Source: a virus (Duplodnaviria; Heunggongvirae; Uroviricota; Caudoviricetes). Taken from it: a DNA stretch of 8,857 bases. The DNA lies in the IMG/VR virus record IMGVR_UViG_2541047595_000014; one strand, written 5' to 3'. Shown here piece after piece: positions 1 to 8,857 of this stretch; the first letter of the stretch is position 1; each line of letters opens with the position of its first letter. A program made the translations under genes and the position numbers. Under the pieces are notes generated by a model. That model did no database searches, was not told the origin of the DNA, and saw nothing but the letters and a program-made list of their open reading frames with translations.

Positions 1-119
1 AGCAGGTATGCCTGAAAGCGTGCGTATTGCCTGAAAACACAACCCGCTACGGGGGAGACTTACCCGAAATCTGATTTATTCAACAAAGCCGTTACGCTGC
101 TCACCATCCGGATCGCAGC

Positions 120-147
120 AATAAAAAAGGCCACCCGAAGGTAGCCT
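120..147 (-). terminator. Candidate rho-independent terminator downstream of the head morphogenesis gene
   Basis: Minus-strand RNA would read A-GGCUACC UUCG GGUGGCC-U followed by UUUUUAUU: an 8-bp stem with one G-U wobble, a UUCG tetraloop, then a U-tract, about 20 nt after the stop codon at 167-169. Seen directly in sequence; no folding energy computed. Confidence 0.5.
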
Positions 148-166
148 GTTGTAATAAATGATTTAT

Positions 167-1282
167 TTAAATCCCTGCTTTTCTGAATACCTGTGCATCA
201 CGCTCACGGAGCTGCTTCAGCGTCAGCCATTCGCCTTTATCGGTGTAAAATTCATCTGGCGACATACCACCATCCCGAATCAGCTTTGCTCGGCTTTCCC
301 CCACAATCTGTTTTTGTCTGGTGTAAGGCTGACGCAAAAACCATTCCCTGTAGGTTGTATCTCCGGCCACCACGCCATCCATGCTGGCCCGCTCAGCCGG
401 GGAAATATCGCGAACATCAATACCCAGTTCCTTCGCTGATTTCAGAATGAACGTTTCCGTTGAGCGGCAGCAGAAATGAATTTTTCCCGGCCCCTGCAAA
501 TAAGGCACGCTGTGACCTACAGGTTTATTATTCAGCGTATATTTGAGGCGATCCCTGATTCGACATTGTGGCGTAGTACGATTATCAAGCGTTGATAACC
601 ATTGCTTACCCTTAATCAAATCATTATTCGCGCTGGCAAAACTCTCACGGGCAGTAGCAGCAAGATGTCCAACCGCTGTTTTTGCAATGCTGGCCGCATT
701 AGCCCGGCTCATCTGCAATGCACCATCCTGAAATCCCTTACTGACATGTCCCCGAATTTTTCTTGCGATCTGCTCATTGGTATCCCCCAGCAAAAAACCC
801 TGACGCACTGTATTTGTTATGCGTCTGAGCCGATCCGCCTCAAGATCTGAGGCCCACTCACTGAGCAGTCGTCCCTGGAATGGTCGCGCCATTGCAGCGG
901 CATAAAGTGCATCAGGAGAGATACCAACCAGAGGGTGAACATCAGCAACAAAATCAGGTAGCATAGAATCAAACAGACTTAACTGATAACCAGCCTCATA
1001 AATTGCCAGCTCGTTCAGCTCTCCGGAGAGACTGGTAAACATGCTGTTAATAGCAGTGCGGTTAACCTCTCTGACGCTCGCCAGAAGTGACTCCAGGCGC
1101 TTAACGGTAAAACTACCTGGATCGAGGCTGTCCAGTGCTATCAGCAGGCGAGCAGTAAGTTCCGCATCGCTGTCATTCAGTATTTTCACCATTCTGGCAG
1201 CCACGCCAGTGCTATAGCGGGATATCCAGACTGCATGAGCAATTGATTCATCACGCAGCCGTTCATTCACGGTTTGCATCAT
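167..1282 (-). CDS. Phage head morphogenesis protein, Mu F / SPP1 gp7 family (minor head protein)
   Basis: 371-aa ORF immediately downstream of the portal gene, overlapping it by 20 bp. The C-terminal half carries the motifs I associate with the Mu F domain: LDNRTTPQCR (D-x-R-T-x-P-x-C) and GKIHFCCRS (H-x-C-C-R). Start is ATG at 1282, with a second in-frame ATG at 1279. Synteny terL-portal-MuF matches Mu and SPP1-type head modules. Confidence 0.75.
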   Translation of the reverse strand: MMQTVNERLRDESIAHAVWISRYSTGVAARMVKILNDSDAELTARLLIALDSLDPGSFTVKRLESLLASVREVNRTAINSMFTSLSGELNELAIYEAGYQLSLFDSMLPDFVADVHPLVGISPDALYAAAMARPFQGRLLSEWASDLEADRLRRITNTVRQGFLLGDTNEQIARKIRGHVSKGFQDGALQMSRANAASIAKTAVGHLAATARESFASANNDLIKGKQWLSTLDNRTTPQCRIRDRLKYTLNNKPVGHSVPYLQGPGKIHFCCRSTETFILKSAKELGIDVRDISPAERASMDGVVAGDTTYREWFLRQPYTRQKQIVGESRAKLIRDGGMSPDEFYTDKGEWLTLKQLRERDAQVFRKAGI

Positions 1283-2669
1283 TGATTTCCATCAGCATTA
1301 CACTCTGATTTTTTAATTCATCGATCACTTCCTCTGGACGGGAATCCTGATCGATAAATTTCAACGCCTGCAACACCCGAACCGCATCAATCTGACGTAT
1401 ATCACCGCCCTGACGCAATGACTGAACAGCCAGCGCGGAGGATGAGTCAAACACCTGGGCAGATACATCCAGTTCAGTGCGCACATCCACATTGCCACCG
1501 CAACTCTCTCCGATCCATTCCGCCATTATCTGGAGAATATTATCGAGGGCATCTTCGAGGGAGTTCGCCATTGTATAAAGCGGCGAGTTTTCCTGCATTC
1601 GCTCTTCATTAGTCTGATCAACAGATTTGGTGGATGTATTTTCAGCACGCAGAAGTTTAGCGCCGGCATGACGCATCTGATTTTCCAGCTTCTCAAGTGA
1701 TGTTTCGCCAGATTCTATCGCTGCGCCACTATGTTCAACATATTCGAGGCCATTTTTTGTTCTGTCCTCAAAAATCGTAGCGGTGGATGCACCAACCGTC
1801 AGTTCTTCATTCCTGTCCAGCCCGTAGGCCACCAGCAATGGAACGCGGGCAACATGAAGAATATTGTCCTGCTCGCTCTGGCTTTGCCAGTGCTTGATAT
1901 TCAGCAAGCCAAGATTAAGCAATGGCGGTGTACCACGCATAAATCCTGTTTTCTTCGTGTACAGTGTTACCAGAGGAATATCATCACGGCTGGTATTCCA
2001 TGACTCATGAAGCGTCCAGACAGATTCGCCATTAGTGCCTTCGCTACGTCGATAAATTTCAACTCGACGGGGCATAATATGGCGGATCTGCTCCACCTTC
2101 TTCTGCCCGAAATCATCACCATCAATAATGATGACCTCTTTTATACGCAAATCAGTGAGAACAACTTTCCCTTTTTCAACTTTCGATTTCCATCCAATAA
2201 CCTGGCGTGGATTCAGCATCGTAACGTACGGGCGACCACCGGCCGCGTTTTCATCGGCTTTTGTCCGAATCTCGTTCATATCCGTTCGTGGATAGTCCAC
2301 CAGCGCATGTGCCACACCATACTGAAATGCGAGACTGAAAAATTGCTGCGCCCACACATCCAGTCGGCTCCCCTCCATGTCGATATTTTCTGCATATTCC
2401 CTGATTTTTTCCGGCGTTTCCTCACTCAATACTGTCGGCTCTGCAAATATGCGCCCAATATTTTGTTTGATGCTTTCTTCATACACAGGAAGTAACGTAG
2501 CCACAGACAGGCGTTTTTTATAAGCGTCTTCATCTTCATTAGGCCATTTGGGGAGATAATTTTCCCCCTGCCTGCGCATTTCAAGCGTACCGCCCATCAA
2601 TGCGTCGTTAATATCCCACGCCTCCAGCATATCGTTATAGTCGAGGTTGGGTGTTGATATATCAGCCAT
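1263..2669 (-). CDS. Phage portal protein
   Basis: 468-aa ORF whose ATG at 2669 sits 2 nt after the terL stop (TAA-TT-ATG), indicating translational coupling. Size and position between terminase large subunit and the Mu F-like gene are typical for a portal. Family assignment is by synteny and size, not by a recognised motif. Confidence 0.7.
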   Translation of the reverse strand: MADISTPNLDYNDMLEAWDINDALMGGTLEMRRQGENYLPKWPNEDEDAYKKRLSVATLLPVYEESIKQNIGRIFAEPTVLSEETPEKIREYAENIDMEGSRLDVWAQQFFSLAFQYGVAHALVDYPRTDMNEIRTKADENAAGGRPYVTMLNPRQVIGWKSKVEKGKVVLTDLRIKEVIIIDGDDFGQKKVEQIRHIMPRRVEIYRRSEGTNGESVWTLHESWNTSRDDIPLVTLYTKKTGFMRGTPPLLNLGLLNIKHWQSQSEQDNILHVARVPLLVAYGLDRNEELTVGASTATIFEDRTKNGLEYVEHSGAAIESGETSLEKLENQMRHAGAKLLRAENTSTKSVDQTNEERMQENSPLYTMANSLEDALDNILQIMAEWIGESCGGNVDVRTELDVSAQVFDSSSALAVQSLRQGGDIRQIDAVRVLQALKFIDQDSRPEEVIDELKNQSVMLMEINDANRE

Positions 2670-2671
2670 AA

Positions 2672-3979
2672 TTAAATCCGAAGTGATGTGACTCTTCCGG
2701 TCGGTTTGACAATAGGGAATTGCTTAACGATGAAATAACCTCCGGCATCATTCGGGTGATCATTGCCAGATTTTTTATCAGGCTCCCCCTTATCATCCCA
2801 GACCTGTTGCTCCAGAGATTCGGCATATACCGGACAACGCTTCACATTAACTTTATAGCGACGCTCACCATTGGCATTGCAGAACATTGCATTCATTGAG
2901 TTAACGCGATCTTTTACTGGCGGGTTCGAGCTGTTCACCACAACGTTAAAACCTGCCTGCTTAAGCTGGGCTATATCCGTCGTACTTGCGTTACTTGATT
3001 TTCTGGAATCTCCGGAAGCATCTGGATAAATATAAATCTCCCTCACTTTCCGGTAATCATGCCCGTCATACAGCCAGAAGCGTTCTTTAATGAGGCGGAT
3101 CATATCCGGCGTATCGTAGGCATTGATGATTTCAGTTACCGCACATGGAAGCCCCAAACGCAGCACATGGACGATTCCCGCCATCTTTCCAACGTTAAAA
3201 TCCATCCCAATATAAATCGGCTCCCCTGGCTGCTCCACTTCTTCGCAATTATTCAGTTTCCGGTCAAACTGATGGTAAACAGTACCACTTGTCAGGTTAG
3301 TAAACCGTCCTAGAAGATAGGCTTTAATCAGCTCTGGAGGGTATGATTCAAGAAGTGAAGGAATGTAATCTGCTGGCAGGTTCTTTTCATTATCGAAAGT
3401 AGATGCCTGCACCAGACCATACAGTGAGGCCAGCTCTGTTTTTTCACGCACGGCTTTAACAAACTGCTCGTAGACAAATTTGAATCCTTCCGGCGTGGTT
3501 GTAACGTCAATACCGTTGCGAAGTCCATCAATCTTATAACGCATACGCGCAATTATCTTGCGCCACGCCGTTCTGGCTTTTTCCTTCGGCAAAATGTCCA
3601 GTTCATCCACCAGCGCATTACCAATTTTGAAACCGACGATCGTTTGTGGCTTCTCCATCGATCTGCAGATAGTGGTTCCCCGATACTGGCGTCCGTAATA
3701 AAAGTGAACCTCTTTATTTCCCTCATTAATTTTTACGTTCAATCCCCAGTCAGCAGCAACTTCTTCCACTGTAGGGTAAAAAATATCGCGAATTTGGGGA
3801 TACGTTGGCGCAAAATATCCCTGATTTATACCTGGATGCTCCCAAATCCCCTTGCATATGCCGCCACACCCAACCCATGTTTTGCCCGAGCCAAAACCAG
3901 CAATATAGGCTTTAAATTTATGGGGCATTGAAAGAAATCGCGCCTGAGGCACATTAAGCGTCGGAGAGATCATCTTCAT
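2672..3979 (-). CDS. Terminase large subunit (ATPase plus nuclease)
   Basis: N-terminal Walker A motif AGFGSGKT (encoded around 3878-3898), a hydrophobic-DELD Walker B-like stretch (LVDELD), and C-terminal acidic motifs (IGMDFN, YPDASGD) consistent with an RNase H-like nuclease domain. The ORF track starts at a GTG at 3982; I prefer the ATG at 3979 (AAGGAG Shine-Dalgarno just upstream), though the ATG at 3973 is also possible. Overlaps terS 3' end by 26 bp. Confidence 0.9.
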   Translation of the reverse strand: MKMISPTLNVPQARFLSMPHKFKAYIAGFGSGKTWVGCGGICKGIWEHPGINQGYFAPTYPQIRDIFYPTVEEVAADWGLNVKINEGNKEVHFYYGRQYRGTTICRSMEKPQTIVGFKIGNALVDELDILPKEKARTAWRKIIARMRYKIDGLRNGIDVTTTPEGFKFVYEQFVKAVREKTELASLYGLVQASTFDNEKNLPADYIPSLLESYPPELIKAYLLGRFTNLTSGTVYHQFDRKLNNCEEVEQPGEPIYIGMDFNVGKMAGIVHVLRLGLPCAVTEIINAYDTPDMIRLIKERFWLYDGHDYRKVREIYIYPDASGDSRKSSNASTTDIAQLKQAGFNVVVNSSNPPVKDRVNSMNAMFCNANGERRYKVNVKRCPVYAESLEQQVWDDKGEPDKKSGNDHPNDAGGYFIVKQFPIVKPTGRVTSLRI

Positions 3980-5048
3980 CACTCCTTAATCTGGCATCAA
4001 CCACATTAATATTGATCGCCACAGGCTGGGGATGTTCATTATCCTCCACCGTTTCGATCTCTTTGCGCAGCTTCTGGTTCTCTATTCTGCGCCGTTCAAT
4101 TTCCAGTTCCTGTAGCCGCTTATCTGCACATAATGCCCCGCCAGCAGAAAGCAAACGCAACAATTCACGCCGGGCGGCAGCCTTATCCTCCAGCAGGATC
4201 TCAACACCGTATTTTCCGAGCTTTGACCCTGCATATAATTGCCGCGCATCCCCATCAAGCAGTGTGGTATCAGCCATATAAAGCTGTCCTGTTCCCTCAC
4301 CGCAGCACTTCGGGCAATCAGGATTGGGTATGGCGTTATCAACAAAGCCGAGGCCTCCATATTCCGGCTCGGGTTTACCATCTCTGGAGGCCTGTGCCGC
4401 AGCCTTATCGAATTCTGCAATATCACGCCACTGGTAGAGATGATTCTCGCCCCAGCAATAACGGCAGTTAACACGGCGAAATTGTGCCAACTGATTGGGG
4501 TCGGCCTGGACAATGGCCATCAACTGGCTCACCAGTAAATCCAGGTCTGCGGTATAGCGTTTCTGGTACTGATTGCGGAAGTAGCTGATAGCACGATAAA
4601 CCCTGGCATTTCTAAGCATACGGCTGGCGTTGCTGTTAGCTGTCGCACCTTGCCCCTCATAACCAGCCAGTCGGTATGCCTCTGTCGGCTTTTTCCCCTG
4701 AGCAACCAACATGGCGAATTTTGCCTGCTGGTCAGAAATACCGAATTCATCGGGGCAGAACGAAATTTCTTCCGTGTCCCCCTCAATCAGGAGTGCATCG
4801 GATACAGCCTTTTTTTTCTGAGATTTTCCGTTCTGCCTTTGCGCAGTCTGCGCAGTTTTTTTTCGCGCACTTTTTTGCGCAGTTTTGCGCATTTCTTTCT
4901 GCGCATTTTTCGGAGTTTTTTTGATGTAACGACGGGCTGTTGCGTAGTTCAGTCCCCTTGCTTCACACCATGCCACCGGAGATATACCGGAGCGGGTGTA
5001 TTCAGCAATATACTCCTGCTGCAACGCCCCCCAGTCCGGTCTGCTCAT
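3954..5048 (-). CDS. Terminase small subunit, unusually long multi-domain form
   Basis: 364-aa ORF directly upstream of and overlapping terL. The central region (FAMLVAQGKKPTEAYRLAGYEG...SNASRMLRNARVY) resembles the Terminase_2-type small-subunit DNA-binding fold. It also has an N-terminal HTH-like segment, a Lys-rich low-complexity linker, a C-terminal Cys-x2-Cys...Cys-x2-Cys-Cys motif (CRYC...CPKCC) and a charged coiled-coil-like tail. ATG at 5048 with AGGA about 8 nt upstream. Confidence 0.75.
   Translation of the reverse strand: MSRPDWGALQQEYIAEYTRSGISPVAWCEARGLNYATARRYIKKTPKNAQKEMRKTAQKSARKKTAQTAQRQNGKSQKKKAVSDALLIEGDTEEISFCPDEFGISDQQAKFAMLVAQGKKPTEAYRLAGYEGQGATANSNASRMLRNARVYRAISYFRNQYQKRYTADLDLLVSQLMAIVQADPNQLAQFRRVNCRYCWGENHLYQWRDIAEFDKAAAQASRDGKPEPEYGGLGFVDNAIPNPDCPKCCGEGTGQLYMADTTLLDGDARQLYAGSKLGKYGVEILLEDKAAARRELLRLLSAGGALCADKRLQELEIERRRIENQKLRKEIETVEDNEHPQPVAININVVDARLRSDEDDLSDA
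4805..4925. repeat. Low-complexity repeat tract inside terS (T-runs and GCGCA repeats on plus strand)
   Basis: Plus strand shows tgcgcag / ttttgcgca units interspersed with T homopolymers of 6-8 nt (for example 4810-4817 and 4856-4863). On the coding strand this encodes the Lys-rich linker KKTPKNAQKEMRKTAQKSARKKTAQTAQRQNGKSQKKK. Seen directly in sequence. Confidence 0.8.
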
Positions 5049-5051
5049 CAG

Positions 5052-5303
5052 TTAGTCCTGATTTTTATCCACCCTGAGTAGTTCGCGCAGAGCAAAGGCA
5101 TCCCCTTTTCTGGCAAGCTTAAACAATGCCGCTCGTAACTCGGCTTCACCTTTCGCTCTGCCCTTACGGATGGCCGCATAAAAATCTGTCATTGCTTCCC
5201 GATTTTCTTTCAGTCGGTTCAGATCAACATCCAGAACGTCAGCGATTTGTTGTGCAGTCATCCGGCACGCTGCCAGAGACTCGACTTTCGAATACGGAAT
5301 CAT
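5052..5303 (-). CDS. Small hypothetical protein (83 aa), possibly helix-turn-helix, leading the packaging operon
   Basis: ATG at 5303 preceded by GGGGGTGA (Shine-Dalgarno-like). Stop TAA at 5052-5054 is separated from the terS ATG by one codon (TAA-CTG-ATG) and is in the same reading frame as terS. Basic, helix-rich sequence (TAQQIADVLDVDLNRL...). Function not recognisable from sequence. Confidence 0.5.
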   Translation of the reverse strand: MIPYSKVESLAACRMTAQQIADVLDVDLNRLKENREAMTDFYAAIRKGRAKGEAELRAALFKLARKGDAFALRELLRVDKNQD

Positions 5304-6171
5304 TTGTCACCCCCATTGATATGCAGGGTGTCTTCTTCCTGTATTTTTCGTGAAGGATTTTTACTGCAGCGTTGTTCCAGGTGACCTGATGGTGAATGCG
5401 TTTATGGCTGGCACCCATCAGTGAGATTTTTACGCACGACGGCGAATACATGACGGAGTAAAAACTTTTAACGTAGGTTCCGGAATCCAGATACAGCTCG
5501 GTCATTCCGCCGCTGTTTTTCTGAGTCTGTTTCTGCCCTAACTGGACAGCACCGATCGTCATAAACAATTCACCACAGCGACCGAGATTCGTGTACGTAT
5601 TCACATCCTCGTTAATGCGCCCCATGAATGAGAACGGTCGATCAACCGAACAGATAAAGCTGTTCATTGCCTTGCGTTTCACCCACGAAGCATGGCCGCC
5701 ATTGTCACCAAGAAAATCCCCGCCCTGCGACATAGCGATGGAAAGCGCGGGTATTGATTCGTAATACGCCAGCATTTCAGAAAGGATCGCATCCAGTTTC
5801 CTTATCGGGAAATAGGCCTGGTCATAGTTGCGATCCACCCGAAACTGGAACTCGTGATAATCATCATCGAGCTGAATGAAGTATTTACACCCGACCAGTT
5901 TTGCCAGGTCGAAACAGGCATTACGGGCGTAAAAAATTGAGCGGCGATCACCAAAATTATCGGCTTCGTCAAAACGACTGGCAATATCGGCTTTGGAAAA
6001 TACCAGCACCTGTTCACCAAATTCAGCCATGTACTGATGCCGTGTCTTATCTTCATCATCAACAACGATAAAAATTTTCCCGGTATAGCCAGCACGACGC
6101 AACGTCCGGTAAGTCAGAACTTTGTCCGGTCGCCCGTGAGTCAGAATAAAGGCGCAAAAATCATCACGCAT
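5239..6171 (-). CDS. GT-A-fold (GT2-like) glycosyltransferase-like protein, apparently soluble
   Basis: Preferred start is the ATG at 6171, immediately preceded by GGGAGGAGGAGGAGG (strong Shine-Dalgarno); the ORF-track start at 6195 is rejected. The N-terminal ~105 aa show the GT2 motif order: AFILTHGRP (first strand), KIFIVVDDED (acidic nucleotide-binding loop), then FYARNACFDLAKLVGCKYFIQLDDDY with the DDD (DxD) encoded at 5860-5868. No obvious transmembrane segment. Function is inferred from motif pattern only. Confidence 0.55.
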   Translation of the reverse strand: MRDDFCAFILTHGRPDKVLTYRTLRRAGYTGKIFIVVDDEDKTRHQYMAEFGEQVLVFSKADIASRFDEADNFGDRRSIFYARNACFDLAKLVGCKYFIQLDDDYHEFQFRVDRNYDQAYFPIRKLDAILSEMLAYYESIPALSIAMSQGGDFLGDNGGHASWVKRKAMNSFICSVDRPFSFMGRINEDVNTYTNLGRCGELFMTIGAVQLGQKQTQKNSGGMTELYLDSGTYVKSFYSVMYSPSCVKISLMGASHKRIHHQVTWNNAAVKILHEKYRKKTPCISMGVTNDSVFESRVSGSVPDDCTTNR

Positions 6172-6958
6172 ATTCCTCCTCCTCCTCCCCGCCATGCATG
6201 ATCTCCACCATGCGCTGCGTCATTCGGACAAATCCATTTTCAATAGCCTGCTGATAATCAATGATCACCAGCGCCGACTCCTCGAAAAGGCACTGAATTT
6301 CAGCGGGGGCATGAGCGTAATAGTCCGCAATTCTGCTGAAATTAAACACTGTGTGACGTTCTGCCGCACACAGGAGGAATTTCTCAATATCAGGATCAAG
6401 GGACGCCGAACGTATCCGGCTGATCAGCTCCTGAGTTTTCGTATCGTCGTACAGTTCACTGATATCCGGTTTACCGCCCGACGGCTCATAAACAGGCGTA
6501 TCAATTTTCGTCGTATACGGCTCCTCCTCATTTCCTGTACCGGGCAAAACATCCGTCAACAGTTCATCAATTTCTGTCGGGATGAAGCCTGTCAGGGAGA
6601 CATCAAAATCAGCATTGATTAGGTCCGACAGCTCCATCCGCAACAGATCTTCATCCCAGCCAGCATTCATCGGCAGGCGATTATCTGCCAGGCGGTACGC
6701 CTTTTTCTGCTCATCCGTCAGGCCAGACAGAACAATGACCGGAACAGAATCCATTTTGAGCATTTCAGCCGCCATAACACGACCGTGACCCGCAATAATT
6801 TTGCCCTTTTCGTCAATCAGCACCGGATTAGTCCAGCCGAATTGCTTAATACTTTCTACCAGTTGTGCCACCTGCTCAGTACTGTGCGTCCTGGCATTGT
6901 GCGCATACGGTGACAATTCTTGTAATGGGCGATAGACTATCTTTAATTTCTCGCTCAT
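6164..6958 (-). CDS. ParB-like nuclease domain (ParB/Sulfiredoxin fold) protein
   Basis: N-terminal ~90 aa (YRPLQELSPYAHNARTHSTEQVAQLVESIKQFGWTNPVLIDEKGKIIAGHGRVMAA) match the ParB N-terminal domain pattern, including the GHGR motif. The C-terminal ~170 aa have unknown function and end in an acidic tail (GGEEEEEYA). ATG at 6958 with AAGG upstream; overlaps the next gene by 8 bp. From memory this may be the full-length counterpart of the short ynaK ORF of the K-12 Rac prophage, but I cannot verify that without a search. Confidence 0.8.
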   Translation of the reverse strand: MSEKLKIVYRPLQELSPYAHNARTHSTEQVAQLVESIKQFGWTNPVLIDEKGKIIAGHGRVMAAEMLKMDSVPVIVLSGLTDEQKKAYRLADNRLPMNAGWDEDLLRMELSDLINADFDVSLTGFIPTEIDELLTDVLPGTGNEEEPYTTKIDTPVYEPSGGKPDISELYDDTKTQELISRIRSASLDPDIEKFLLCAAERHTVFNFSRIADYYAHAPAEIQCLFEESALVIIDYQQAIENGFVRMTQRMVEIMHGGEEEEEYA

Positions 6959-6974
6959 ACAGCCTTGCTTTATG

Positions 6975-7012
6975 AATAAAACGCACCCCAGCAGCCAGTG
7001 CTACTGGGGGCG
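6975..7012 (-). terminator. Candidate rho-independent terminator downstream of trkG
   Basis: Minus-strand RNA: CGC-CCCCAGUAG, loop CACUGG, CUGCUGGGG-(U)-GCG, followed directly by UUUUAUU. That is a 9-bp core stem with one G-U wobble, extendable to 12 bp with a single bulge. It lies between the trkG stop (7096) and the ParB-like gene's ribosome-binding site. Confidence 0.45.
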
Positions 7013-7095
7013 GAGGTGTTGCTGGTAAAGTTAGGTATTGGATCAATGAGTGAGTCAACATAATATTAAACTCACAATTATAAATCAGCCATATA

Positions 7096-8553
7096 TTAGG
7101 AGCGCCAAAAAAAACCTGAAAACAATATAATAACAGGATAAATTTCAAGGCGACCAAGAATCATAGCTATGCACATTAAATATTTTGCAATGTCATTAAG
7201 CACTCCGAATGACGATGCAGTAGCCCCAAAACCTAATCCCATATTATTAATACATGCAGCCACTGTTGCAAATGATGTAAGAAAATCATATCCCATACCA
7301 TTTAACACCAGTATAAAAAACACCGTGAAGAGAGTATAAAGAAAAAAGAAACTCCATACAGACCTCATTACACGATCTGTAACTATCTTCCCTCCTACAT
7401 TTACACTTAACAACGCTCTGGGATGAGAAAGTTGATTTATCTCGTGTTTGCTTTGTTTGAAAAGTATAAGAAATCGAAGTGACTTAATTCCACCACAGGT
7501 TGAACCGATACATCCCCCAAAGAAACTTGACAACAGCAAAAACACTATCGTGTGCGTGGGCCAGTTTGCATAATCCTGCGTAGCTAAACCATTATCAGTG
7601 AGCATGGAGCTGGCAAGAAAAAACGAATGAATAAAACTTCCATGCAAGTCATACATACCTATATGCCAGACCTGGAAAGAGGTAACAATGATCACCCCTA
7701 AGGCTATTAACAGAAAGAAACGAAGTTCAATATCTCTGATTAAAGGTTTTATCGTTTTTCTGCTAATAACAATATACCAAAGAGTGAAGTTGAAAGCCGA
7801 TAGCAGGGAAAAAGAACCAGCCACCAGCTCAACCAAATAGTTATTAAAATATCCGATACTCTCGCTATGAGTTGAGAAACCACCAAGCGAAACTGTGGAA
7901 ATCCCGTGACAAATAGCATCAAACAAAGACATTCCTGCAAGTCTATAACAGACAATACAAGCAATACCTAATAAAGAATAAGTTATCCACAGTGTCCGTG
8001 ACGTATCGGCCAGGCGGGGAGTGAGTTTGTCATCCTTAAATGGCCCCGGCATTTCTGACTGATAAAGCTTTGCACCACCAATACCCAATAATGGCAATAC
8101 AGCAACCGCCAGAACAATAACTCCTAAACCACCTATAAAATTTAACTGTGACCGATAGTACAAATATGCCCGAGGTAATGAACTAACATCATCAATTACA
8201 GTTGCTCCTGTTGTTGTTATTCCAGAAACCCCTTCAAATAGAGCATCAATGAACGTTAAATTAAGTTCTGAGTCAATCCATAAAGGGAATGCACTAATAA
8301 CAGAAAACAAAATCCAAAACATTACAATTATAATAAACCCATCACGGGTACGTAATTGAATGCCAGATTTCTTAGTTGTATACCACGCTCCGCCACCAAT
8401 GCAAAAAAATATAACGAAAGTTATAAAGAAAACGAACAGGCTTTTTTCTTTATAAAACAATGCTACAACCATTGGTGGCAACATTGAAAGACTATAGAGC
8501 CAAACCAGGAACCCACACATATGAGTAACAACTCTTACATGAGATGTATTCAT
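7096..8553 (-). CDS. trkG: Potassium uptake protein TrkG (TrkH/KtrB-family K+ transporter)
   Basis: Translation begins MNTSHVRVVTHMCGFLVWLYSLSMLPPMVVALFY..., which I recognise as E. coli TrkG, the Rac-prophage paralogue of TrkH. It is a multi-pass membrane protein with repeated glycine-containing pore-loop-like segments (TTTGATV, SLGGFST, NNMGLGFG). The ORF track's upstream start at 8571 is a TTG; the ATG at 8553 gives 485 aa, the TrkG length as I recall it. The region is visibly AT-rich relative to the flanking phage genes. Confidence 0.95.
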   Translation of the reverse strand: MNTSHVRVVTHMCGFLVWLYSLSMLPPMVVALFYKEKSLFVFFITFVIFFCIGGGAWYTTKKSGIQLRTRDGFIIIVMFWILFSVISAFPLWIDSELNLTFIDALFEGVSGITTTGATVIDDVSSLPRAYLYYRSQLNFIGGLGVIVLAVAVLPLLGIGGAKLYQSEMPGPFKDDKLTPRLADTSRTLWITYSLLGIACIVCYRLAGMSLFDAICHGISTVSLGGFSTHSESIGYFNNYLVELVAGSFSLLSAFNFTLWYIVISRKTIKPLIRDIELRFFLLIALGVIIVTSFQVWHIGMYDLHGSFIHSFFLASSMLTDNGLATQDYANWPTHTIVFLLLSSFFGGCIGSTCGGIKSLRFLILFKQSKHEINQLSHPRALLSVNVGGKIVTDRVMRSVWSFFFLYTLFTVFFILVLNGMGYDFLTSFATVAACINNMGLGFGATASSFGVLNDIAKYLMCIAMILGRLEIYPVIILFSGFFWRS

Positions 8554-8570
8554 ATCTAAATATTCTTTCA

Positions 8571-8604
8571 ATTATAACCACCTTGCTGCAATATTATGAT
8601 TATA
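8571..8604 (-). promoter_or_regulatory. Candidate promoter region for trkG (two perfect TATAAT hexamers on the minus strand)
   Basis: Minus-strand TATAAT at 8599-8604 and again at 8571-8576, in an AT-rich leader upstream of the trkG ATG. No convincing -35 (TTGACA-like) hexamer found at 16-18 bp spacing, so this is a weak call. Confidence 0.25.
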
Positions 8605-8690
8605 CTGTATAAAATTTAACTCCTCTTAGATCTTACTTCACTGTTCCTTATGAAACAATCATCAAAATGAATCATATTGTAGTTAAGATT

Positions 8691-8857
8691 TTACTTTAAA
8701 CACTGCTCGGTTATGTATTGCTGAGCACCTTCAAGTTGGGCCTGCATCATTACCAGTCGTTCCCGGAGGGTGAAATAATCCCGTTCAGCGGTGTCTGCCA
8801 GTCGGGGGGAGGCTGCATTATCCACGCCGGAGGCGGTGGTGGCTTCACGCACTGACT
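8691..8857 (-). CDS. rzpR: Spanin inner-membrane subunit Rz (i-spanin), 3' portion; gene runs off the right edge
   Basis: Minus-strand frame ending at the TAA stop at 8691-8693 translates ...SVREATTASGVDNAASPRLADTAERDYFTLRERLVMMQAQLEGAQQYITEQCLK, closely matching the lambda Rz C-terminus as I recall it. The start lies beyond the window, so it is absent from the ORF track. Symbol follows Rac-prophage naming and is an inference from the trkG neighbourhood. Confidence 0.85.
   Translation of the reverse strand, partial: SVREATTASGVDNAASPRLADTAERDYFTLRERLVMMQAQLEGAQQYITEQCLK
8750..8857 (-). CDS. rzoR: Spanin outer-membrane lipoprotein subunit Rz1 (o-spanin), 3' portion, embedded in the +1 frame of Rz
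   Basis: Frame ending at the TAA stop at 8750-8752 translates ...SQCVKPPPPPAWIMQPPPDWQTPLNGIISPSGNDW, the proline-rich Rz1 signature. It is nested entirely within Rz in a different frame, as in lambda. Start lies beyond the window. Confidence 0.85.
   Translation of the reverse strand, partial: SQCVKPPPPPAWIMQPPPDWQTPLNGIISPSGNDW

Follow-up and report, generated by a model that had tools for sequence, protein, structure and literature searches.

A prophage gene pair encodes a glycosyltransferase and a ParB-like protein

The window analyzed here, that is, a whole stretch of 8,857 nucleotides of Caudoviricetes DNA (IMG/VR record IMGVR_UViG_2541047595_000014), carries two minus-strand genes that are the subject of this study, one encoding a 310-aa glycosyltransferase (GT; 5239-6171), and the other, immediately upstream, a 264-aa ParB-like protein that we refer to as the partner (6164-6958). 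Bases 91-8857 of the window are 100% identical to an Escherichia coli chromosome, and the region corresponds to an intact Rac-like lambdoid prophage. Its genes follow the order lysis genes, trkG moron, partner gene, GT gene, small open reading frame (ORF), small and large terminase genes, portal gene, and MuF-like gene, an arrangement also displayed by the induced phage vB_EcoS-666R9 (38.7 kb; GenBank ON470614). The GT, labelled "hypothetical protein" in RefSeq (WP_001204033.1), is found at ≥90% identity in 996 of 5,426 complete E. coli genomes, 869 of which cover at least 80% of the gene.

The ORF list for the window contains a longer version of the GT gene (5239-6195, 318 aa). The start codon is likely the ATG at 6171-6169 rather than the listed start at 6195, since it lies just downstream of a run of Shine-Dalgarno-like GGAGG repeats visible in the sequence (GGAGGAGGAGGAGG, 6175-6188), overlaps the upstream stop, and matches the 310-aa product called by PGAP/RefSeq and in GenBank phage records. 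This ATG and the TGA stop codon of the partner gene (6166-6164) generate an 8-nt gene overlap, and abutting or overlapping GT and partner genes are the rule across related loci. At its other end, the E. coli GT carries a C-terminal tail of ~22 residues (5239-5310) that is found in no homologue, homologues stopping near residue 288, and that overlaps the start of the small ORF (5052-5303). This tail may have arisen by read-through of an ancestral stop.

The GT is a soluble GT-A enzyme of the TAGT family

An original prediction, made by reading the sequence without database searches, had proposed that this protein is a soluble, GT2-like enzyme of GT-A fold resembling SpsA and endowed with a DxD motif. 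Profile and structure comparisons bear out the fold, the resemblance to SpsA and the solubility, but they place the protein in another sequence family. The sole Pfam match of the GT is to PF20691, the TET-associated glycosyltransferase (TAGT) family (E value of 6.1e-35; 121.5 bits for a gathering cut-off of 27.5), which it matches over profile positions 4-205 of 205. This is a significant match to a GT-A family, whereas the Glycos_transf_2 (GT2) profile gave no match at E ≤ 0.1 in the same Pfam scan. "GT2-like" is therefore apt for the fold, for which SpsA is the best match in the PDB, but not for the sequence, which is that of a TAGT with no CAZy GT2 profile match. In PHROGs, the GT belongs to phrog_842 (E value of 1.5e-103). 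A search with the GT protein returned at least 8,000 candidates, and PF20691 is present in all 120 relatives among the matches listed, some of which bear UniRef names such as "GREB1-related" or "TET-associated glycosyltransferase domain-containing." The GT is thus almost certainly a GT-A enzyme of the TAGT type and, judging from its profile match, a central member of PF20691. This family covers the T2/T6 beta-glucosyl-HMC-alpha-glucosyltransferase (HMC, hydroxymethylcytosine) and GT-A enzymes whose acceptor is the 5-hydroxymethylcytosine (5hmC) produced by TET-like dioxygenases of phages (PMC13216743, PMC13390438, bioRxiv 10.1101/2023.12.21.572611).

An AlphaFold2 model of the GT (mean pLDDT of 67) is confident for the N-terminal ~150 residues and poor for the C-terminal half. 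When this model was compared with the PDB using Foldseek, SpsA (1qg8) was the best match, with an E value of 1.2e-4 and 11% identity, and other GT-A structural neighbours include glycogenin, SunS, POMGnT1, ColGalT1, TarP, and GnT-I. A profile of the GT clade yielded zero matches when run against PDB sequences. SpsA and other GT2 enzymes, TarP, GnT-I, and other GT-A proteins differ from the GT in that they share only 6-16% identity with it, are not linked to it by a GT2 profile match, and use glycans or teichoic acid as acceptors.

As for the motifs, they are found where they had been predicted in the translation running from 6171 to 5239: ILTHGRP corresponds to residues 9-15, A82-R83-N84 (5920-5928) contains the conserved "R" of the family, and D102-D104 (5860-5868), the DxD motif expected to bind the metal and the nucleotide-sugar, is encoded by the codons GATGATGAT at 5868-5860. 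VVDDED was also correctly positioned, at residues 36-41, but it is not conserved as a block, only D38 and D41 being invariant in the close set of homologues. Conservation was assessed in two alignments, A1 with 26 homologues (60-82% identity), and A3 with 10 divergent sequences (26-44% identity to the first of them, the GT of HHTV-2) from a haloarchaeal virus and from Lactobacillus, Nocardia, Porphyromonas, and Vibrio phages, a set that extends to archaeal viruses and to phages of Gram-positive bacteria. A82, R83, N84, and DDD are invariant in A1; in A3, A82, R83, and DDD are again invariant, and N84 is at least 90% conserved. Two further family motifs, which were not on the original list, emerge from these alignments: E188-D189 in the sequence INEDVNTY (5605-5610), invariant in A1 and with D189 invariant in A3, and a C-terminal histidine pair, H260-H261 (5389-5394), invariant in both. 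E188-D189 corresponds to the "ED" motif of the family and is a candidate for the catalytic base, while H260-H261 might provide a third metal ligand. The match to PF20691 and the invariance of motif residues across homologues indicate that this constellation is not random. Moreover, R83, D102-D104, and E188-D189, invariant or nearly so, form the R...DDD...ED(Y/F) motif set, although the residue following ED is here V190 rather than Tyr or Phe. The R...DDD...EDY/F set is that of experimentally active phage GT-A DNA glycosyltransferases (bioRxiv 10.1101/2023.12.21.572611).

The GT has no hydrophobic helix, as had been noted. The highest 19-residue Kyte-Doolittle mean is 1.08, with zero windows above 1.6, as opposed to 2.62 and 73 windows above 1.6 for TrkG, which is encoded in the same window. 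The pI of the protein is basic (~8.0-8.6). These properties bear on the idea that a prophage-borne gene, whose product has TarP and GT2 enzymes among its structural neighbours, might specify a cell-surface (O-antigen or teichoic acid) conversion enzyme of the GtrB or TarP kind, altering the surface of the lysogen. This idea is close to refuted. There is no transmembrane segment or membrane-anchoring region and no GT2 Pfam match; the neighbours are ParB-like and terminase genes, with nothing resembling gtrA or gtrC; the gene sits in a late operon and not in a lysogenic-conversion module; and the GT is also found in Lactobacillus phage c5, 191-kb Vibrio phages, and an archaeal virus. We have therefore rejected GtrB-type O-antigen conversion, in agreement with the earlier view that a bactoprenol-linked enzyme was unlikely.

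The partner consists of a ParB/Srx module and a dedicated domain

The original prediction missed what is the most informative feature of this locus, a dedicated and apparently undescribed domain in the product of the upstream ParB-like gene. The partner, which matches phrog_620 over its full length, consists of two parts. Its first ~140 residues (6539-6958) correspond to a ParB/Srx domain of ParB-CTPase fold, with GHGR and ADNR motifs, which is the only Pfam domain in the protein (ParB_N, PF02195) and whose PDB matches are ParB/Spo0J proteins. No helix-turn-helix (HTH) was detected in the partner. The N-domain has close relatives at the N terminus of ParB-methyltransferase fusions, as represented by phrog_498 (E value of 1.9e-50) and the PADLOC model MTase_II (PDLC03229; 1e-38), with scores of 131-173 bits over ~140 aa. 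Of the 517 phage records matching the partner, many are methyltransferase fusions of this kind, notably in streptococcal prophages, and in Streptococcus phage Javan488 one such fusion occupies the same pre-terminase slot. In PADLOC, the GT has no match to defense or counter-defense models, and the partner matches only the ParB part of the methyltransferase model; the possibility that the pair is a component of a defense system was dropped on these grounds.

The second part of the partner is a C-terminal domain (CTD; residues ~145-250, 6209-6526) of ~110 aa, which follows a YTxKIxxPxYEP motif and has the consensus YTxKIxxPxYEP...FLxxAAxRHxVFxFxxIAxYYAHAxxExQxLMExSALVIID...AIENG. The CTD matches no Pfam family at E ≤ 1, including the ParB dimerization domain, and no solved structure, but its model shows a small, helical fold whose core is confident. 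An exhaustive search recovered 1,196 cluster representatives, in which the CTD is nearly always found either at the C terminus of proteins of ~250-300 aa or alone in proteins of ~130-200 aa. In 191-kb Vibrio phages, for example, the gene directly upstream of the GT gene encodes a stand-alone CTD of 139 aa, which has no ParB domain and shares 45-55% identity with its E. coli counterpart. Among 50 representatives of atypical length, ParB_N is the only domain that Pfam identifies in fusion with the CTD. In two loci (L137, 4169-4993; L203, 758-1579), the CTD follows an N-terminal region of ~150 aa that has no ParB_N match in Pfam, and may thus also be fused to another module.

The partner is acidic throughout, with a pI of 4.5 for the whole protein, 4.8 for the N-domain, and 4.3 for the CTD. 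It ends in a poly-glutamate stretch, GGEEEEEYA (6167-6190 in the window). The combination of an acidic partner and a basic GT suggests an electrostatic complex, and the acidity of the partner could possibly reflect DNA mimicry.

The CTD is the cognate partner of the GT

A first locus search with the GT protein alone retrieved only near-identical E. coli prophages. We rely on two sets of loci, seeded from either side of the pair. The GT-seeded set consists of 80 diverse viral contigs identified with the GT profile, 78 of which contain sequence upstream, the other two ending at the GT. The CTD is present upstream in 78/78, abutting the GT in 77 and separated from it by a radical-SAM gene in 1. 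The CTD-seeded set consists of 80 loci drawn from a collection with one genome per species, 77 with room downstream, and here the GT is found downstream of the CTD in 77/77. The two genes are adjacent in 75 of these (3 with an interrupted or extended GT), while a class I methyltransferase gene is inserted in 1 and a 557-nt gap in another. The ParB N-domain, by comparison, is fused to the CTD in ~80-85% of cases, the remainder being stand-alone CTDs or proteins with an unassigned N-terminal region. T6 and Aeromonas phage Ah1 have no CTD at their TAGT loci.

Sequence co-variation follows the same pattern. In the 102 loci that have all three domains, mean identities are 49% for the GT, 47% for the CTD, and 35% for ParB-N, and Spearman correlations between the pairwise-identity matrices are 0.41 for GT-CTD, 0.07 for GT-ParB-N, and 0.16 for CTD-ParB-N; although such matrix correlations ignore phylogeny, the three comparisons serve as mutual controls. 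A functional pairing of the GT and CTD is therefore highly probable in view of their obligate synteny and co-variation, and the two are presumably in physical contact. Because synteny holds in both directions, because the GT co-varies with the CTD and not with ParB-N, and because stand-alone CTDs exist, we conclude that the CTD is the cognate partner of the GT and that the ParB domain is an exchangeable attached module. The pair, in which the partner protein is ~245-285 aa, occurs in Lactobacillus phages phi jlb1 and c5, halovirus HHTV-2, Nocardia phage NTR1, and a Porphyromonas phage, and its hosts span phages of Proteobacteria, Firmicutes, Bacteroidota, and Actinobacteria as well as haloarchaea. 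Together, the GT and its partner domain suggest a two-part tagging system.

The pair lies upstream of terminase genes and has no acceptor-making neighbour

In most of the viruses just named, the pair is directly upstream of terminase genes, while several small genes intervene in HHTV-2. In phage c5, it starts 90 bp from the cos site. More generally, the first large ORF downstream of the pair is a terminase in most loci, assigned by Pfam to Terminase_3 (28 loci), Terminase_6N (28), gpA-type (2), TerL_ATPase (2), or long Terminase_2 small subunits (7). The Vibrio phages depart from this layout, their pair being located between primase/exonuclease and helicase genes, far from the terminase. Within ±4-5 kb of the pair, no third conserved gene family was found in 165 loci, nor anything upstream able to make a hydroxylated base. 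The annotation of vB_EcoS-666R9 likewise contains no TET/JBP (5mYOX) dioxygenase, no dCMP/dUMP hydroxymethylase, and no second glycosyltransferase. The association with TET/JBP or hydroxymethylase genes, from which the family takes its name, is hence not seen for this GT, nor is it universal in the family.

A few loci contain additional enzymes, namely a radical SAM protein (L103, 924-1901) or a class I SAM methyltransferase (L206, 4302-5180) encoded between the partner and the GT, or a 585-aa fusion of the GT to a methyltransferase (L191, 3518-5272). Such rare additions resemble the tailoring reactions of modification pathways. Vibrio phage pv27 (OR413349.1, locus L255, 191 kb) has a stand-alone CTD together with the GT, and its genome, inspected up to 100 kb and beyond 170 kb, encodes a PurZ-like adenylosuccinate synthetase ("2-aminooxy adenylosuccinate synthetase"; 30930-32042) and a metal-dependent phosphohydrolase (39401-39928), a hint of a genome containing 2-aminoadenine (Z). 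It also encodes, beside dihydrofolate reductase, a thymidylate synthase homologue that looks like a genuine thymidylate synthase (best PDB matches at 1e-45).

This gene content bears on the name carried by phrog_842, beta-glucosyl-HMC-alpha-glucosyltransferase, which, taken literally, would make the GT an enzyme adding a second sugar to glucosylated hydroxymethylcytosine, as in T2/T6, or one using 5hmC or 5-hydroxymethyluracil supplied by another enzyme. The T6 enzyme, from which the name derives, does belong to PF20691 (37.2 bits), so that both proteins score above the threshold of the family. However, neither pairwise nor profile comparison reveals similarity between the T6 enzyme and this GT clade (BLASTP E value of 1.6; hhalign probability of 0.2%), and T6 encodes a dCMP hydroxymethylase and an alpha-GT that supply glucosyl-5hmC as acceptor, while no dCMP hydroxymethylase, alpha/beta-GT, or 5mYOX is annotated in the prophage or in phage c5. 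Moreover, the T6 and Ah1 loci have no CTD. A literal reading of the label is thus very unlikely, and membership of the GT among T6-type second-sugar transferases was ruled out by the missing T6 similarity, the lack of an annotated hmC pathway, and the absence of the CTD from T6.

Comparison with known systems points to DNA as a possible acceptor

All characterized TAGT members act on DNA, be it the T2/T6 enzyme (PMC13216743) or the 5mYOX-associated GTs (bioRxiv 10.1101/2023.12.21.572611). The latter are similar to the GT described here in that they are soluble proteins of ~280-310 aa with the same PF20691 domain, GT-A fold, and R...DDD...ED set. However, their 5hmC is produced by a C5-methyltransferase and a TET-like dioxygenase encoded next to them, whereas here no acceptor-making genes were found in the annotated phage genome or in the 165 loci, and there is an obligate CTD instead. 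Taken alone, the GT adds a member to a known family; combined with its partner and lacking a hydroxymethyl-base pathway, it represents a novel variation on known phage modification systems.

The closest parallel for the partner comes from a 2026 study, in which a phage thymine dioxygenase was found to need an adjacent ParB-like protein without HTH for activity on double-stranded DNA (PMC13229309). As in that 5mYOX176-ParB176 system, a presumed DNA-modifying enzyme is here encoded beside an adjacent, co-directional ParB-fold gene, whose product has an NTP-binding type of N-domain followed by a C-terminal domain and no HTH, and terminases are frequent neighbours in both. The enzyme of that system is, in contrast, an Fe/2OG dioxygenase, and the CTD described here has no Pfam match and also occurs without ParB. 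That ParB proteins direct modification enzymes is a general idea attributed to Iyer et al. 2013, as cited in PMC13229309. In the fusions of ParB-N to DNA methyltransferases (phrog_498, PDLC03229), which have a closely related N-domain and, in Javan488, the same pre-terminase position, the catalytic domain is fused, whereas here an adaptor-like CTD follows the N-domain, and a separate, translationally coupled gene encodes the enzyme. Phage methyltransferase fusions are noted in a survey of ParB-CTPase folds, which contains no mention of glycosyltransferases (PMC12704722). The literature searched yielded no description of the CTD or of a ParB/CTD-TAGT unit, although a prior mention in the 2013 paper that defined TAGTs is possible.

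On this basis, we give even odds to the possibility that the pair is a late-expressed, partner-dependent DNA glycosyltransferase, analogous to ParB-dependent thymine dioxygenases, and DNA itself has about an equal chance of being, or not being, the acceptor. The pair would be the first part of the packaging/late operon to be transcribed. The GT would bind a nucleotide-sugar at DDD with Mn2+, its active site being completed, to judge from the family motifs, by R83, E188-D189, and H260-H261. The CTD would act as a GT-specific adaptor or activator, and the ParB/Srx N-domain, by analogy with the methyltransferase fusions and the ParB-dependent dioxygenase, would couple the enzyme to DNA. Phage DNA would thus be glycosylated after replication, right before packaging, and protected against host nucleases. 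Given the position of the pair at the head of the operon, glycosylation just before packaging is the most likely timing under this scheme, and the ParB-like module might limit the mark to phage DNA during packaging. The link to DNA is the relatedness of the partner N-domain to that of ParB-methyltransferase fusions, which in many phages are DNA adenine methyltransferases, to which we add the location of the Vibrio pair among replication genes, the pairing of a basic GT with an acidic partner, and the tailoring enzymes of variant loci.

Several points weigh against a DNA glycosyltransferase. The main obstacle is chemical, since canonical DNA lacks the type of hydroxyl used by every characterized member of the family, and the annotations of the 38.7-kb Rac-like phage and of the 31.8-kb c5 list no gene that could make such an acceptor, be it a 5mYOX/TET, a dCMP/dUMP hydroxymethylase, or another enzyme. 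The partner is acidic and has no recognizable DNA-binding domain, the C-terminal half of the GT model, which corresponds to the acceptor half, is unreliable, and the dioxygenases that are associated with GTs are the ParB-independent ones (PMC13229309). The literature searches yielded no report of DNA modification in phages that have the pair. Finally, the neighbouring terminases belong to unrelated families, which could mean that the substrate is a packaging protein.

If so, the GT would be a protein glycosyltransferase acting on a packaging or virion protein (terminase, portal, or capsid) or on a host protein, with the CTD as substrate adaptor or acceptor. Soluble GT-A toxins and the glycosylation of mycobacteriophage virions are precedents for such an activity. 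Terminases of at least four unrelated Pfam families lie immediately downstream of the pair, no hydroxylated base appears to be available in the annotated Rac-like phage, c5, or the 165 loci, the structural neighbours glycogenin, SunS, POMGnT1, and ColGalT1 modify proteins or peptides, and the YTxKIxxPxYEP motif offers a conserved, Tyr/Thr-rich linear sequence. However, the Tyr and Thr of this motif are not invariant and are missing in the Porphyromonas phage, none of the terminase or structural families shows co-variation with the pair, and the Vibrio pair resides among replication genes, far from the terminase. The N-domain is, furthermore, the one fused to DNA methyltransferases, and every characterized TAGT acts on DNA. 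Protein glycosylation is the main alternative, but an unlikely one.

The acidity of the partner and its lack of a DNA-binding domain would also fit an enzyme acting on a small molecule or nucleotide, for example in counter-defense, in which case the ParB/Srx partner would be an NTP-binding regulator rather than a DNA clamp. ParB-CTPase folds bind ATP, GTP, or CTP and have many roles outside segregation (PMC12704722), and gene context leaves the acceptor unconstrained. Such an activity is nevertheless improbable, since it has no precedent among known TAGT relatives and the pair has no match to defense or counter-defense models, and since the late/packaging position and the link to methyltransferase fusions are better suited to modification of a polymer.

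Returning to a partner-dependent DNA glycosyltransferase, its boldest version is one in which the TAGT and its CTD, usually fused to ParB, add sugars directly to canonical, non-hydroxymethylated DNA. We regard this version as doubtful. If true, it would represent a new chemical class of DNA modification, in which ordinary bases or the DNA ends might, for instance, be N- or O-glycosylated. Its carriers would be prophages in about one sixth of the complete E. coli genomes, together with viruses infecting haloarchaea and at least four bacterial phyla.

Other features of the E. coli prophage

The small ORF downstream of the GT (5052-5303, minus strand), listed with 83 aa and annotated with 70 aa in ON470614, matches phrog_309 (E value of 8.3e-23), its similarity being to the central part of long terminase small subunits. 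The terminase genes come next on the same strand (2672-5048), with the small subunit at 3954-5048 and the large subunit at 2672-3982 (Pfam Terminase_2, Terminase_6N, and Terminase_6C). Farther downstream, the MuF-like minor head protein (167-1282, minus strand) is labelled "NAD+--asparagine ADP-ribosyltransferase" in ON470614, but Pfam identifies only Phage_Mu_F. The best E. coli matches all start at base 91, and bases 1-90 of the window therefore differ from those genomes, which may mark a mosaic boundary downstream of the MuF-like gene.

On the other side of the pair, the trkG moron (7096-8571) is located between the lysis genes and the partner gene. A strong terminator-like hairpin on the minus strand (6986-7009), with a 10-bp stem containing 7 GC pairs followed by TGCGTTTTAT, lies ~30 nt upstream of the partner start, and the moron thus seems to have its own terminator. 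Late transcription would have to pass through this hairpin, as expected under Q antitermination. No parS-like inverted repeat of ≥12 bp was found near the pair, within 4900-7200. Degraded Rac prophages can retain an intact GT when their partner gene is annotated as a pseudogene and IS3 and tail-fibre remnants have taken the place of the terminase region. PGAP applies the symbol ynaK to partner genes that are truncated (L001, 21463-21720).

Implications

TAGTs that lack any hydroxymethyl-base pathway, called "solitary," are explicitly flagged in the literature as unexplained. Solitary TAGTs were reported in 288 of 753 GT-encoding phages (PMC13216743), and in a 2023 survey ~65% of GT-containing contigs did not have the gene beside a 5mYOX or a thymidylate-synthase-type enzyme (bioRxiv 10.1101/2023.12.21.572611). 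Our results reveal that one large, highly conserved clade of such TAGTs is not solitary but has an obligate partner domain, one without a Pfam family, and that the question can now be approached through a defined unit of two genes taken from an ordinary prophage of E. coli. Were the target a protein, the pair would represent a widespread glycosylation system for virion or packaging proteins. If the target is DNA, ParB-dependent phage DNA modification would be widened from dioxygenases to glycosyltransferases and glycosylation of unmodified bases might emerge, with consequences for how restriction is evaded, for sequencing artefacts where genomes are rich in prophages, and for enzymatic tools for DNA labelling.

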